This document shows positions 22,251-60,063 of a DNA stretch of 64,000 nucleotides, piece by piece. Under the pieces are notes generated by a model that was given only the letters and a program-made list of their open reading frames with translations, was not told where the DNA came from and did no database searches. The DNA comes from Eledone cirrhosa. Lineage: Eukaryota. The translations under genes and the position numbers were made by a program. Each line of letters starts with the position of its first letter. Position 1 is the first letter of the stretch. The stretch spans positions 69,874,001-69,938,000 of the forward strand of contig OZ024743.1 of assembly GCA_964016885.1 (NCBI GenBank), given 5' to 3'.

Positions 22251-24110
22251 ACGTGTGAATTTATTTTACAAAATCAGTATATAGCCATGCATGCAACTCT
22301 CATTTTCGTGATAAATTTGTCATGCCCTGAGCCACTAATTAATTTTTCCCGCTTCTAACAAAAGCCTGCAAAAACCTTGTTTATGATTTTGTACATTTAG
22401 AAAATTGATAACTATTTCTGTTCCTACTCAATTTTGATTTATATATATATATATATATATATATATATATATATGTGTGTGTGTGTGTGTGTGTGTGTGT
22501 GTGTGTATGTCACCATATATGCATACATTCACAGAGGCACACACATATATATGTGCATGTATGTATATGTTGTACAAAGAAATAGGGATTGTTATGAATT
22601 TTATAAATGAACAAATCATTTATGAATATTTGAATACGTATATATATATATATATATATATATATATATATAAATATACACACACACATACACACGCATA
22701 CATATATATATATATATACACACACATACATATATATATATATATATATTAAAATACATTTATATATATATATATATATATATATATATATATATATATA
22801 TATATATATGTGTGTGTGTGTGTGTGTGTGTGTGTGTGTGTGTGTGTGTGTGTGTGTGTGTGTGTGTGTGCGTGTGTATGTGGATGCGTGTGTCGGTCTT
22901 TGTGTGTTTATGTGTGTTTGTTCAAATGATGTTTGATTCGTATCAAAGCTTTCTATTAAAACATTTCAGTAGAATAATCCAAATGCAGGGACTTACTCTG
23001 CGTGTCAACATATCTCGTTGCATTAATATTAAATGCAAGCGTGTATATAAGTATATATATTTATGGATGGTTAATGTGAGCATACATACACATATATATG
23101 CCACTGTGTGTATGTATATAACACACACGAACACACACACAAACACACACAAACAGAAGCAATATTTCACAACTATGGAAATTCACTTCGTCTGTACACA
23201 CATAAAATCCCCCAAGACACAGCTGGAGTCTCCACAAAAACGCCGCCCATTCCCGAATGCCGGACTATTCGCCTACCACACACAGCCTGCTTAATTTTTT
23301 TCTTGTCAAAACATTGATGTTCAAACCTTAACCCTTACCCTTCGAACTCTCCAAATCTTGAAGAAGGATTTATGTCCGAAACATCAAGCCCTCTTCTACT
23401 TCCTCCTAAACGTGATACTAATAAGACTTAGTGTTTTTGCTTCTCTGTGATAGTCTAGTCATTTTCTGAACTATATACACGCGCACACACACACACACAC
23501 ACATACACACACGCGCGCGCGCACACACACACACACACACACACACACACACACACACACACACACACACACACACACACACACACACACACACACACAC
23601 ACACAAACACACACACACACACACACACATATATTTGTGTGTGTGTATATGTGCACACACATACATAATTAGGCCGAAGTTTAGAAAATATAAAAATGAT
23701 AATTGTAAAAAACAACAATGTTTTTTTCCGAAATGGAACGGAAACGAATCACAGTCAAATATGGTTTTCAATGCATTAGTATAGTAGGTGCTTCTTTATT
23801 TCCTATTCTTTCTTAATGATTCAAACAGATGAAACAGATCTAGTCCTGCAAATGTCATTTCTATATTCTCTCTCTCTCTCTCTCTCTCTCTCTCTCTCTC
23901 TCTCTCTCTCTCTCTCTCTCTCTCTCTCTCTCTCTCTCTCACTATCTCTCTCTATCTCTCTCTCTGTATATATATAAATATAAATATATATATATATATT
24001 TATAGGTAATATATGGACATGTAAGTAAAAGATAAACATATATAACAAAACAAATACCACAGTACATGGAAGAAATATTTTAGTTTAACATTGAAACAGC
24101 AGGAAGACAC

Positions 24111-24146
24111 TCTTAAGGTTTCGGACAATAGTCCTTCATCAGAATA
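24111..24146 (-). ncRNA. Minimal type I hammerhead motif (family H1)
   Basis: Minus strand: TATT-CTGATGA-A-GGAC tatt GTCC-GAAA-CCTT-AAGA. Flanks 24025-24150 are homologous to 56670-56800. Confidence 0.62.
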
Positions 24147-26064
24147 TAGAGTTAGAAATAGATGGTAAATAGAAAGTAAATTGGAAGGGACGGGTAAAAA
24201 AGAGGGGGAAATGGGGAGAAAAAACACACGTGCTTATTCAGTCGGCAATCTCTGTGAGTATGTATATATACATAATTTCTCTGTCCACTCAAATCTCTTA
24301 ACATGTTGCTGACCTCTACTTTCTTCGAGTTCTTTTTTTTTTTGTCTATCATGTTTATTTATTTGCTTATTCTTCTTTTGACATTCTTTCATCATAATAT
24401 TTATTCAAAAGTTTCAATTTTATTCATCTTTTCTTTCTATTTCCCCCTTTCTCTCTTCTTTTCTTCCTCTTTATTTCTTTATTATTTGATATTTATTTAC
24501 TTCCTTTTTTTTCTTTAATTTAATCTTTTATTTTTCTTGTCTTTCTTCTTTATTCCTTCATCTTTTTTATTTCCACATTACCTTCCCATTTTTATTTCCA
24601 GCTATATCACCATCAACCCAAGATCACCACCATCACCTTCCCACGCTCCATTGCTTCAGAGCTTTGTATTTCATCATTTTTTTTATCTTTTAGTAGAACA
24701 TCCCCCCATTGCACACCACGCCTACTATCGGAATTTTTTTCTTTCCTTTTCATCTCTTAATTACTCATCATTTTCTATCTCAAACGAAAGGAGAGCTCCT
24801 CAGTCACTGAGTTGACCGGAAGCCGGCGGCCATTTTAATTTTCTTTTCTCCCTTTCATTTCAACTTCCCGATACTTTCTTCTCTCTTCTTGCTCTCTCTT
24901 TCTCTCATTCTATCTTCCTTTCGTTCCCCTCCTATTTTACCCACATCTCCCCACTCCCACCACCACACCTGTTCCCTGCAATCTCTCCCTTTGAAAATAA
25001 TAACAGGTGAGTCAATCCCAGCTATTCTGCCTACTTTGCCACACTCCCTTTGAATAACACAACTCAATCAGTACACGTACACACAGACACACACACACAC
25101 ACACACACACATACACACACATACACACACACACATATACACACACACACACACATATATATATATATAAGGGGAGAAACTGCGAGGGTTGTTTATCATA
25201 ACCACAGTCATCATCATCATCATCATCATTGTTTATCGTCATTTTAAAACCATTAGAATGATGATGATGATATAAAATAGGTTTCGTATAGGTTGACAGC
25301 CCCTTGATTTCCCGCCTTCTTTAACACACACACATATATATATATATGTGTGTGTGTGTGTATAATTACATACATATATATATATATATATATATATATA
25401 TATATATATATATATTTATATATATATATGTACATTTATATATATATATATATATATATATATATATATATATTTATATATATATATATGTATGTATGTA
25501 TATATATATATATGTGTGTGTGTGTGTGTGTGTGTGTGTGTGTGTATATATAATATATTTATATATATATATATAAATATATATATATCTATATATTTAT
25601 ATATATATATATATATATATGAATATATTATATATATATGTACATATATACACACATATATATATGCACACATTTATATATATATATATATGTACATATA
25701 TACACACATATATATATGCACACATTTATATATATATATATATATATATATATATATATATATATACATATGTGTGTGCGAGTGTATGCGTGCGTGTATG
25801 TATATATGTAAGTATGTGTGTGTCTGTGTTTATTTATACCTTAATATCCATAGCACCCCCACCCCTGTGACTCATTTTCTCTCTCTCTCTCTCACTCTCT
25901 CTCTCTCACTCTCTCTCACTCTCTCTCACACTCTCTCTCTGTCTCTCTTTCTCTCTCCTCCCCTCCTCCTCCGTCTCCATATGTATCTCAATGTCGTATT
26001 TCTGACTCATACTTTCCTTCTCTCTCTTTTGGTTTCTCCCTCTCTTTTTCTCATTTTCTCTCAC

Positions 26065-58112: not shown

Positions 58113-59447
58113 TTATAGCCCTAGTCTACCCCCCGGGTCATTATGGGGTTTGAGGGCGAGGTCAGTCCTACGCAATCTATGTTTACATGCAGTAACCAGT
58201 TCATCTTTCTTGTTTAGGAGTTGGTCCGTCGAAAACAGCATTTGTAAAGTTTCCTCCGAGCATAAATTGCACGGACGGCGTCCTCCCGTGTAAGAATTGG
58301 CTCTGGACAGTAATCTCCAAGTGAGATCATAGGTGATGTTGTTGTCCTTGAGGTCCCATATGTGGCCCGAAAGTGTAGTGGCGTGACGCCGGGCCGGGTT
58401 TCGGAAGGTATGTCTATGTTGGTATAGCCGGGTCTTGAAGTCACATGCGGTAAGTCCTATATAGGCTTTGTTGGAGATATCCGTCCTCACGTTGCACTGG
58501 TAGATCACATTACGGTCTCTGCATCTATTCTCGAGTGGGCAAATGGATCTATCCGGACAGTTACACCTCCTGGTCGGTTCTCCACTGCTATTTAGGTTAT
58601 TTCTGCCATCGGGGTTGAGTTTTTTGTTGTTAGAGGTGACGATGTTTTGTGCGAAGTTTGGTGTAGTGCTGTAAGAGAGTTTGATGGTATGTTGGTTAAT
58701 TATGTTGTGGTAGCGGTGTTGTAATGGGAAGTGTTTTTCAATGAGCCTAAAGAATAGTTTCCCGATGGGAGTTGTCACCTCTGCGTTGTGGGGAGGATTG
58801 AACCATGTTACATTGCGTGAGCGGCGGTGTCTCCTGCTGGTTCCGCTAATGGGAGCTGGACTGTAGGATATTTCCTCCCGGAAACCACTCCGCTTGAGGG
58901 CCTGGTTGTAATAAGGCGCATGTTCATCGAATATCCGCTCATTAGCTGACAAACGGGATATGCGGAGGGAGATGTTTTTGACCAGGTTGTTTGTGATGTT
59001 CCTAGGATGGTTTGATCGGCGGTGGATGTAGTGCAGATTGTCATTAGGTTTCCTGTATGGGTAGTACAGGTCGTTTTCGAGGTCGAGGGTCACGTCCAGG
59101 AAGTTTACTCGGGTCAGGGACGTTTGTAGGGTTATTTTAAATCCCCAGTCGCGGAAGAATCTGATTAATTGTTTCCGGACCCGATCTGTACTACTGGGGT
59201 TGTACCCTTTAAGGGTGAGGAGCCCATCATCACGGTACAATCCACCACCAAATGCAGGAAACATATCAGTGAGTTTGGCTATTAGGAGTAATCCTATAAG
59301 ATCTGTGACCTCCGCCGAATCCGTGGCGCCCATGCTGACGTCGAAGGGTGAGTCGGGAGCTCTTTTTATCCATTTAGAGTCGTCAAAGAGTAAGACTGTC
59401 TTCCTGGCGTAGAGGATGATTTTTCTTTCCTGGTCGGTGATGGGCAC
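58113..59447 (-). CDS. Penelope-like RT (C-terminal half) plus GIY-YIG endonuclease, 5'-truncated
   Basis: SMGATDSAE, GLYRDDGL, NFLDVTLDL, SNHP, WFNPP, CNCx5CPLx3C, NVIYQC...AYIGLT...R...H, CNLC..E. 444 codons without a stop, but the N-terminal RT motifs are missing. Confidence 0.9.
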   Translation of the reverse strand: MPITDQERKIILYARKTVLLFDDSKWIKRAPDSPFDVSMGATDSAEVTDLIGLLLIAKLTDMFPAFGGGLYRDDGLLTLKGYNPSSTDRVRKQLIRFFRDWGFKITLQTSLTRVNFLDVTLDLENDLYYPYRKPNDNLHYIHRRSNHPRNITNNLVKNISLRISRLSANERIFDEHAPYYNQALKRSGFREEISYSPAPISGTSRRHRRSRNVTWFNPPHNAEVTTPIGKLFFRLIEKHFPLQHRYHNIINQHTIKLSYSTTPNFAQNIVTSNNKKLNPDGRNNLNSSGEPTRRCNCPDRSICPLENRCRDRNVIYQCNVRTDISNKAYIGLTACDFKTRLYQHRHTFRNPARRHATTLSGHIWDLKDNNITYDLTWRLLSRANSYTGGRRPCNLCSEETLQMLFSTDQLLNKKDELVTACKHRLRRTDLALKPHNDPGGRLGL

Positions 59448-59951
59448 ACGTGTTTAGTATTTTGGCCCCTTTTGTTGACCCGTCACCGTATCATTTACGT
59501 ACTTATACCTCTTAAAAGGGTCCTTGCCTATTTCGTCCCACCTAGTTCTTTTACTTATTTCGTTATTTCTTTATTTCTTTCTTTACTTCTTTCTTTCTTT
59601 ATTTATTTATTTATTCTAGCCTAACAATAGCTAGAGACCTAGGTCGTAGAATTTAATTTACTTTACTTTTTTCTTTACACTTATTTGCTTTTCTTCACTC
59701 TCAGTATTTTTTCTTTCCTATATATTTCTACCCCCCATTGTTCTACCTACCGTTCCGACTTCCTCCCCCTCCCCCTCCCCTGTATCTTCTTTGACCTCAT
59801 GCCCAGCTGTAGCTGGCACTACCAACGCTTGATTGGGTCTACTCCACCCCTTCCCCTCTTTCTCCTACTGGCAGGTTTAGCCACCATGTCCCCTACTAAT
59901 TTGCAACCACAGAATTACTACTGATTTTTGACAATCACTTTGACCATATAT

Positions 59952-60063
59952 GGAATTACCCCTTGAGAAGACCGGCTATTTAAATACCAGGATAAATTTT
60001 CATTTAGTCCAGAATTAGCCGTCGAAACGGCTTGAGCTCAGCTGTCGGGGTCCTACTGGTTCC
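59952..60063 (+). ncRNA. Type I hammerhead ribozyme, U3-A8 core variant, in the inverted pLTR
   Basis: CCCC(59959)-TTGAGAA-GACCGGCTA...TAGCCGTC-GAAA(60024)-CGGC...GCTG-TC|GGGG; predicted cleavage after 60046 (GUC). Confidence 0.8.

Follow-up and report, generated by a model that had tools for sequence, protein, structure and literature searches.

Among the Penelope-like elements (PLEs), members of the Hydra clade target (TA)n (Craig et al. 2021, PMC8557442) and are characterized by a C-terminal GIY-YIG endonuclease without the CCHH motif, a CxCX5C linker and a type I hammerhead near the 3' end (PMC8557442). Naiads carry the endonuclease at the N-terminus and have no canonical hammerhead (Craig et al. 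2021, PMC8557442). In the Poseidon element PAc of Anolis, reverse transcriptase (RT) has two internal start sites, and the tail corresponds to the sequence separating the two (Frangieh et al. 2024, PMC11167929); these starts are located in a stem-loop, and hammerhead cleavage is dispensable in vitro (PMC11167929). Numerous hammerhead families on truncated Penelope-like ends have been published (Cervera and de la Pena 2014, PMC4209133), and the general picture of ribozyme-tagged Penelope-like ends is already in print.

The window analyzed here is the whole stretch of 64,000 nucleotides of Eledone cirrhosa DNA. The short islands between its microsatellites are PLE hammerhead ends of a known kind, carrying putative self-cleaving ribozymes. 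A first-pass annotation had described them as ribozyme-tagged Penelope-like ends of several families located in dinucleotide repeats, which was supported, and had ascribed to them much of the apparently unique DNA. They occupy about a fifth of the non-repeat bases in the span concerned (5422 of 26227, ~21%; 2447 bases or 9% without the 57-60 kb element), and the view that they form most of the unique DNA was rejected on this figure.

The element at 57-60 kb

The largest insertion, family H (56919..60143, minus strand), is composed of a 5'-truncated main copy and an inverted 5'-truncated copy with a tail, and has (TA)n tracts at both ends. Its open frame of 446 codons (58113..59453, minus strand) contains an RT core (YRDD), the CxCX5C linker (C297, C299 and C305 invariant in alignment A1) and, following the RT, a C-terminal GIY-YIG endonuclease. 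The CCHH motif is absent, a single Cys lies between both GIY-YIG half-motifs, and CxxC and CxH flank the conserved E and N (C395/C398 and C423/H425 invariant). About 270 N-terminal residues are missing in comparison with homologs; the N-terminal RWK and DKT motifs are present in near-full-length homologs, the copy in the window being 5'-truncated. The protein shares 42% identity with P0071, judged by eye to be the published Hydra-1_Ajap protein. Pfam searches of the window ORF were blank and those of four homologs brought up no family of relevance, and a viral contig collection held no relative of the element.

Domain order and motifs fit, and by its predicted protein the 57-60 kb element is a Hydra-clade PLE. 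It had earlier been labelled a Naiad and a candidate helper. The Naiad identity was rejected, as the endonuclease is C-terminal, not N-terminal, and a hammerhead is present; what it shares with the Naiad clade is (TA)n targeting, inverted structures and tails. As a helper this copy, being 5'-truncated, is itself incapable.

The two arms of the insertion are 614 nt long and 99% identical. One bears a type I hammerhead with a U3-A8 core, a long helix II and a 6-bp helix III (56930..57023, minus strand) and joins (TA)n without a tail; the inverted arm bears the same hammerhead (59958..60051, plus strand), whose unconstrained minimum-energy fold is the three-way junction. The sites listed at 56918 and 59952 are therefore not separate but arms of one insertion, and their core is TTGAGAA rather than the CTGANGA first reported. 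The tail (60064..60143, plus strand) is restricted to the inverted arm and includes a bulged hairpin at 60072-60098 (E 2 in the hairpin model), the first pair of which is A-U, usually G-C.

Family H resembles the Hydra clade in its (TA)n targets, inverted 5'-truncated copy and single-ended tail. For comparison, 77 related loci were drawn from 567 confirmed relatives, and 67 hammerhead matches were found within 57 of them; the sample includes repeated families and hosts, and its counts are therefore non-independent. The U3-A8 core sets family H apart from these relatives (2 of the 67 matches), as does the distance from stop codon to core, 1095 nt versus 47-518 nt in the 42 related loci measured (the filtered-out locus L040 is similarly long). 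Protein and ribozyme also differ, as judged by eye, from those of octopus Hydra-1_Obim, and the tails are about 50-85 nt long versus 30-40 nt in published Hydra.

Hammerhead motifs in the islands

All 13 hammerhead sites of the first-pass annotation were present where it had placed them. Its claim that they are real held for 11, which have support beyond the motif, and failed for 29924 and 45492, which have none. The expected excess over shuffled DNA was also borne out: a graded type I descriptor (score of at least 24) gave four perfect-core matches (cores at 57018 on the minus strand and at 59963, 28924 and 39397 on the plus strand), versus a mean of 0.03 and a maximum of 1 when the region beyond 22 kb was shuffled 1164 times, island by island and with dinucleotides preserved. 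All shuffle figures are optimistic, the descriptors having been composed after the sites had been seen. An initial stricter descriptor missed most sites, and the direct repeats listed by a repeat finder were dominated by microsatellites.

The high-copy family B is represented by an island with a tail (28843..29115, plus strand; hammerhead 28916-28981, hairpin 29031-29053, E 3.6e-5 in the hairpin model) and by a tail-less copy (49530..49684, minus strand; site 49590) homologous to it (site 28917, z 15), in which most of helix II and the GAAA have been lost. The latter has the same 5' start, and its junction with (TA)n lies 7 nt ahead of the position that the hairpin would occupy. The family F island (39225..39517, plus strand) lies between (TA)n tracts and has an intact-core hammerhead (39392-39471) and no tail, with (TA)n 52 nt past the cleavage site. 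The family D island (29158..29293, minus strand) begins directly at (TA)n with a hammerhead (29241-29293) that the graded descriptor rejected because of a weak helix II; a helix-II-agnostic test recovered it (3 matches versus 0.011 expected), and it ranked top, with E 0.037, in a model built from outside loci only. Its hairpin (29198-29219) was found by pattern and missed by the hairpin model (R1). Family C is a miniature inverted pair (29456..29868, minus strand): the minus arm holds a decayed hammerhead (29579-29666; E 1.3 by itself) alongside the clade hairpin (29498-29520), and the tail-less plus arm (29810-29868) terminates in (TA)n. Two further islands were absent from the first list, namely a family D relative with tail and hairpin (62606..62719, minus strand; hairpin 62646-62668), in which the hammerhead is not recognisable, and an island with a textbook clade hairpin (62907..63056, minus strand; hairpin 62932-62955, E 5.5e-6) and no clear hammerhead.

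Family A comprises minimal hammerheads at 24005..24200 (minus strand; site 24111), where no clade hairpin occurs, at 56620..56796 (plus strand; site 56676), with G12A and ending in (CA)n, and at 23350..23470 (plus strand; site 23356), a decayed copy. All three match the minimal-hammerhead descriptor (3 matches versus 0.007 expected); 24111, formerly listed as intact, is decayed, with helix III broken and helix I weak. A strongly decayed fourth copy (36188..36402, plus strand; site 36281) has homology to these three as its sole support (z 4.9-7.6). The cores at 23358, 24142 and 56680 have one base added ahead of helix II and pair G10.1 with C11.1, and the palindromic minimal helix III occurs at 56680 and is broken at 24142 and 23358. 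Family A, with its minimal hammerheads and lack of the hairpin, probably derives from another Penelope-like clade. The window agrees with published minimal PLE hammerheads (PMC4209133) in its numerous consensus families within one genome, in motifs that are mostly single and stem from truncated elements, and in its opposite-strand pairs 100-700 bp apart, U3-A8 variant, extra base before helix II and, at 56680, palindromic helix III. It differs in the 4-6 bp helix III of families H, D and E, for which dimerisation is predicted to be perhaps unneeded; no description of a downstream hairpin was found in that source.

Two candidates were indistinguishable from chance: family E (29915..30061, minus strand; site 29924), with a decayed core and E about 3 in the graded descriptor search, and family G (45376..45646, minus strand; site 45492), with A13G and no clade hairpin, absent from the graded matches and aligned only partially (E 1.5) in the outside-loci model. 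This outside-loci hammerhead model (R2), built from short-helix relatives, did not pick up the ribozymes with long helices at 39397 and 57018/59963. Rfam found no hammerhead in 28842-30061 or 59453-60143, nor, for the whole window, among the 150 of 229 matches listed, which were microsatellite-driven miRNA matches only; this blank is uninformative, because Rfam also found none in five Hydra loci whose hammerheads are clear.

That all these motifs arose by chance in AT-rich DNA and were over-read by eye is highly improbable. The idea draws on the two of 13 sites (29924 and 45492) that fail to beat shuffles, on nine folds of which none reached a z-score beyond -2, and on position 47642, a possible chance match that passes several descriptors. 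Against it stand the shuffle counts, family-wide conservation, the helix covariation in related loci (reached by 0 of 500 shuffles) and a second, independent motif located at the distance expected. The idea already fails for families H, B, D, F and A, and stands for E and G only.

A bulged hairpin and the junctions with (TA)n

This second motif, a bulged hairpin, lies downstream of the ribozyme. Among the hammerhead matches of the 77 related loci, 39 distinct ones have downstream room, and 33 of these are followed by the hairpin (0.97 expected). Its inner pairs, which played no part in selection, form in 36, 31 and 23 of 37 sequences (27.2, 16.6 and 15.0 when shuffled), and a 2-nt 3' bulge is the sole register supported at all three positions. 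A search for the double-hairpin pattern in genome contigs turned up bacterial chance matches only, which then provided a negative control: Watson-Crick pairing at the first inner position occurs in 58 of 58 Hydra matches versus 34 of 120 of these. The hairpin is duplicated, a pair 55-83 nt apart being present ahead of the ORF, between hammerhead and start codon, in 14 of 15 upstream copies, with TA within 9 nt upstream of hairpin 1 in 25 of 25 cases but of hairpin 2 in only 18 of 25. Hairpin 2 also shows weak covariation (p 0.02-0.04). In sequence, the outer stem hardly varies.

A hairpin model built from outside loci only gave six matches in the window, five at predicted sites (three of them weak, E 2-3.6). 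Of the six window hairpins, four are located 15-70 nt past a listed hammerhead, an arrangement that 0 of 200000 random placements matched. The hairpin pattern used for the window had been relaxed after the window variants had been seen. The hairpin likely ties four window families to Hydra, as judged from sequence; the clade assignment of families B, C and D comes from the hairpin and the junction rule, there being no ORF linked to B, C, D or F, and family F is likely Hydra too, by likeness alone.

The junction rule emerged from 21 copies followed by (TA)n. A longer relative was available for five, and in all five TA starts 6-8 nt before a hairpin (three at hairpin 1, two at hairpin 2). In the window, two of three pairs fall within this range (8 nt in family H, 7 nt in family B), and the family C junction, 8-13 nt off, falls outside it. 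Family B contigs exit into (TA)n behind 29028 in three runs (77 in X1, 2 in X3 and 1 in X6).

The bulged hairpin is the new part of this work, no description of it having been found in the literature searched. The duplicated hairpin is visible in published Hydra consensus sequences; the published Hydra-1_Obim consensus has no such hairpin at the ends examined, and no mention of the duplication was found in Craig et al. 2021 (PMC8557442), the main text of which lacks the word 'hairpin'.

Where copying may start

We conclude, with a probability of roughly 0.7, that the islands are hammerhead-bearing PLE termini, including four hairpin-marked Hydra families, which were likely inserted into (TA)n by target-primed reverse transcription with a predicted start within the RNA, at a TA 6-8 nt before a hairpin. 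The Hydra protein would bind either hairpin, nicked (TA)n would pair with a TA-like template of 2-5 nt, and copying would proceed upstream across the uncleaved hammerhead. Initiation at hairpin 1 would yield a tail-less copy, and initiation at hairpin 2 a tailed copy retaining hairpin 1; an early stop, or run-off at the 5' end of RNA whose transcription had begun in the upstream pseudo-LTR, would leave islands of 140-400 bp. The hairpin likely sets both internal start points from which the 'tail' arises. Somewhat better than an even chance attaches to a further reading, in which the duplicated hairpin is a ruler for a telomerase-like RT with a start site 6-8 nt upstream of each copy, the tail is one hairpin period, and a ratchet from two hairpins to one to none mass-produces fixed-length hammerhead mini-elements in microsatellites.

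The hairpin might instead act on DNA, as a GIY-YIG recognition or resolution signal on cDNA or the donor copy, the ends being fixed by cutting and not by priming. Craig et al. attribute the tail to endonuclease-mediated resolution, earlier work cited by Frangieh et al. found the tail of Drosophila Penelope to be needed for endonuclease recognition, and the near-invariant outer stem would suit a protein-binding site. We nevertheless regard this as improbable, since the sense-strand stems contain G-U wobbles (also in window families C and D), the one-sided 2-nt bulge favours a single strand, and tail ends coincide with RT start sites in the sole element tested. Like that element, Poseidon PAc, the Hydra families would have two internal starts 3' of the hammerhead with the tail between them, an involved stem-loop and AT-rich targets. 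PAc has one AC-rich stem-loop within the ORF and a start site without homology to the cut DNA, whereas Hydra here has two divergent, clade-wide bulged hairpins before the ORF, junctions just outside them and a proposed TA microhomology of 2-5 nt.

Family B bears on another possibility, that some islands, those of this family foremost, are non-autonomous RNAs (retrozyme- or SINE-like) with an existence of their own, which retain hammerhead and hairpin so as to borrow the Hydra protein, possibly via circular RNA. The family is very abundant (6629 contigs in run X1) and was found in four runs with four organism codes. Its 5' end appears to be fixed, the same start being common to both window copies and to loose ends from X1 and X3 behind simple flanks that all differ, and this fits a non-autonomous element equally well. 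The core and the stems are conserved and the loops variable (no variants in the core, GAAA or outer hairpin stem; 29037-29041 variable), and pLTR-derived monomer relatives of retrozymes have been published. Like non-LTR retrozymes (PMC7229834; 10.64898/2026.07.22.740005), these are short, non-coding type I hammerhead units, pseudo-LTR-related and dispersed as monomers. Tandem units and circular RNA define the non-LTR retrozymes, whereas the units here, known from DNA alone, are single or inverted only, with no tandem units with complete hammerheads in the window; tandem retrozyme status was rejected, and independent spread as retrozyme-like RNA would be hypothetical, while the abundance and apparently fixed 5' end of at least this family stand. 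No tail-to-head joint of family B occurs among the joints listed, in contigs from which rare forms drop out and beside which 142 loose ends lie outside the listing. The junction rule, moreover, demands a second-hairpin template for a tailed copy, and the island has none. Run-off at the transcript 5' end would explain the fixed start without an independent RNA. We consider independent RNAs unlikely, and prefer copying of Hydra termini from the hairpins.

Hammerhead-bearing ends crowding a genome are ordinary for invertebrates. PLEs are the sister group of telomerase, and how they choose the start of copying is largely open, the Poseidon element being the one in vitro initiation system found in the literature. 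A short RNA element common to the clade, whose distance to both classes of junction is fixed, opens this start-site question to direct testing, and the hairpin offers a simple marker that assigns ORF-less fragments to Hydra and sets their true ends.

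Hammerhead sites and the make-up of the window

All 13 hammerhead sites that the first-pass annotation had listed, mostly in islands between microsatellites, are present in the window. A graded descriptor, designed with these sites already known, yielded 4 perfect-core matches with a score of at least 24, whereas 1164 shuffles averaged 0.03. Individual sites were backed by descriptors (29241 and minimal motifs at 23356, 24111 and 56676, recovered by two further descriptors between them, far above shuffles), by homology to siblings (36281 and 49590) or by a second motif, the hairpin discussed below (29579), while 29924 and 45492 remain unproven. 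The site at 24111, originally listed apart from the decayed copies, is itself decayed. At 47642-47720 (+) there is also a hammerhead-like fold with a U3-A8 core and many G-U pairs, which satisfies several descriptors, fails others and may be due to chance.

Simple and satellite repeats dominate the window, whose DNA is animal-like and in which non-repeat islands constitute 30472 of 64000 bases. The proposal that much of the apparently unique DNA is ribozyme-tagged was an overestimate, as the hammerhead islands cover 5422 of the 26227 non-repeat bases of their span (2447 without the large element). Much of the remainder consists of a decayed non-LTR element at 51000-56268 (+), with a reverse transcriptase (Pfam RVT_1), restriction-like endonuclease motifs and a second 3' fragment (55639-56268, +), and of a ~590-bp repeat flanked by (ACAT)n. 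The former is presumably Dong/R4-like. Copies of the latter (38561-39145, 42781-43375, 43476-43927, 50039-50223, 54917-55496 and 60948-61129) are 82-96% alike, and a related subfamily is found at 38199-38451 and 60539-60792; by eye, the start of the repeat can be drawn as a pseudoknot. Other features are: (i) a MITE- or fold-back-like inverted repeat of 261 nt (95%) that encloses 116 nt (45873-46510) and has its centre repeated at 46557-46624, (ii) a 56-nt inverted pair with a CTGATGA box (36777-36832 and 37714-37769) on either side of a long palindrome made of (CTA)n/(TAG)n, (iii) large satellites, one with a 69-bp unit (11941-18835, 95% match, ~101 copies) and one with a 34-bp unit (3446-9210, ~168 copies), containing long low-complexity open frames, and (iv) a fragment with zinc-finger-like repeats (50098-50847, -) resembling the 3' end of a LINE, which we take to be of the RTE type. 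Some SINE fragments presumably resemble octopus repeats.

The ribozyme-tagged community itself is real and contains nothing unexpected, since Cervera and de la Pena (PMC4209133) describe numerous families of hammerheads in one genome, most of them lone motifs from truncated elements, and Li et al. (10.64898/2026.07.22.740005) derive retrozymes from pseudo-LTRs.

The 57-60 kb element

The hammerheads at 57 and 60 kb, both with U3-A8 cores, are the arms of a single insertion (family H, 56919..60143). Opposite-strand pairs and the U3-A8 variant are likewise reported by Cervera and de la Pena (PMC4209133). The family H ribozyme (59958-60051) is predicted to self-cleave as a monomer, with the cut behind position 60046. 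The element had been labelled Naiad-type, which is wrong: its features are those of the Hydra clade, for which PMC8557442 describes canonical hammerheads and (TA)n targets, whereas Naiads have a reversed domain order and lack a canonical hammerhead. Its layout, a truncated copy joined to an inverted truncated copy with a tail (the stretch beyond the hammerhead) on one end, is the same as the Penelope-like pattern described there. Near-full-length homologs have ~680-735 residues, with RWK and DKT present. With arms that match at 99% and an open frame, this copy is likely young; its suggested role as a helper is excluded by the missing N-terminus.

A hairpin downstream of the hammerhead

Related loci (the best 80, of which 77 are distinct, of 567 confirmed relatives) were taken from metagenome contigs; they contain repeated families, hence the counts that follow overstate independence. 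In 57 of the 77 loci, 67 hammerhead matches were found, and their helices covary strongly. Downstream of the hammerhead lies a bulged hairpin, GCTC-Y...R-NN-GAGCACT, detected behind 33 of the 39 distinct matches that leave 110 nt or more of downstream sequence and show no early (TA)n (0.97 expected). Its inner pairs, ignored during selection, form with a 2-nt 3' bulge in 36, 31 and 23 of 37 cases, against 27.2, 16.6 and 15.0 after shuffling, and the first of them is Watson-Crick in 58/58 Hydra matches versus 34/120 bacterial chance matches. Upstream of the ORF, the motif is doubled (hairpins 1 and 2) with a spacing of 55-83 nt in 14 of 15 cases. Core variants also occur: U3-A8 in locus L064 and G3-C8, another compensated variant, in both pseudo-LTR hammerheads of L021 (285-327 and 2788-2830).

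(TA)n follows 21 copies, 16 of them without a longer relative for comparison. In all 5 comparable copies, TA starts 6-8 nt upstream of hairpin 1 (3 copies) or hairpin 2 (2 copies), with 2-4 nt of microhomology at the junctions. The corresponding distances in the window are 8 nt for family H, 7 nt for family B (islands 28843..29115 and 49530..49684) and an ambiguous 8-13 nt for family C. Model R1, derived solely from loci outside the window, matched the window strongly at 62924 and 29017 and weakly at 60058, 62638 and 29490, missed the hairpin at 29219 and gave one extra match near 35960. The island at 35974-36132, which lies between (TA)n tracts, contains a pair of hammerhead 3' halves set back to back, together with a clade hairpin that is damaged (E 0.66 with model R1). 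Of the six window hairpins, four closely follow a listed hammerhead of the same orientation, compared with 0/200000 random placements, the hairpin pattern having been loosened with the window already known. In L021 (2933-3090) and L063 (2419-2567), a single (TA)n tract separates two unrelated Hydra ends that point towards each other; families B and D are arranged in this way at window positions 29116-29157.

Family B and a possible initiation mechanism

Family B is clearly abundant: from the four sequencing runs mapped, out of 19 listed, 6629, 57, 13 and 16 contigs were placed on 28826-29130, although contig depth does not equal copy number and placement at 80% likeness is biased to conserved parts. 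The core, GAAA and outer hairpin stem show no differences at or above 5%, and 29037-29041 (loop and innermost pair) is variable. Frequent variants make the palindrome of helix III perfect (41%) or change the helix I U-G to U-A (48%), and one contig of run X6 carries an apparent compensatory pair in helix II. Contigs enter (TA)n behind 29028 in runs X1 (77), X3 (2) and X6 (1). A fixed 5' end is suggested by loose ends near 28860 (X1, X3), in which differing simple flanks give way to the initial 20 bases of the family itself. From run X7, two loose ends point to slightly shorter copies. Among the joints listed there were two inversions and no tail-to-head joint. That family B is an independent non-autonomous RNA remains an alternative to its origin by the route considered next.

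According to Frangieh et al. (PMC11167929), reverse transcription of a Poseidon element begins at two internal sites within a stem-loop, the tail corresponds to the interval between these sites, and the reaction does not require hammerhead cleavage in vitro. By analogy, we infer a Hydra equivalent, in which each hairpin would place the enzyme and nicked (TA)n would prime 6-8 nt upstream; a start at hairpin 2 would give a tailed copy and one at hairpin 1 a copy without a tail, and short islands would result when copying terminates early or runs off the 5' end of a transcript from a pseudo-LTR. Two observations speak against the model: TA precedes hairpin 2 in only 18/25 cases, and the hairpin is not visible at the ends examined of the published octopus Hydra consensus. 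A signal acting at the DNA level remains the other reading of the hairpin.

The hairpin has no Rfam match. No description of it was found in the accessible text of PMC8557442, PMC4209133, PMC11167929 (supplement text search: zero matches), 10.64898/2026.07.22.740005, PMC13282606, PMC7229834, PMC6765202 and PMC5737381, the figures of which, like Repbase notes, may mention the motif; it is visible, without remark, in published consensus sequences. The initial observation is mostly right and of a kind already known; what is new, and can be tested, is the duplicated hairpin together with its junction rule.
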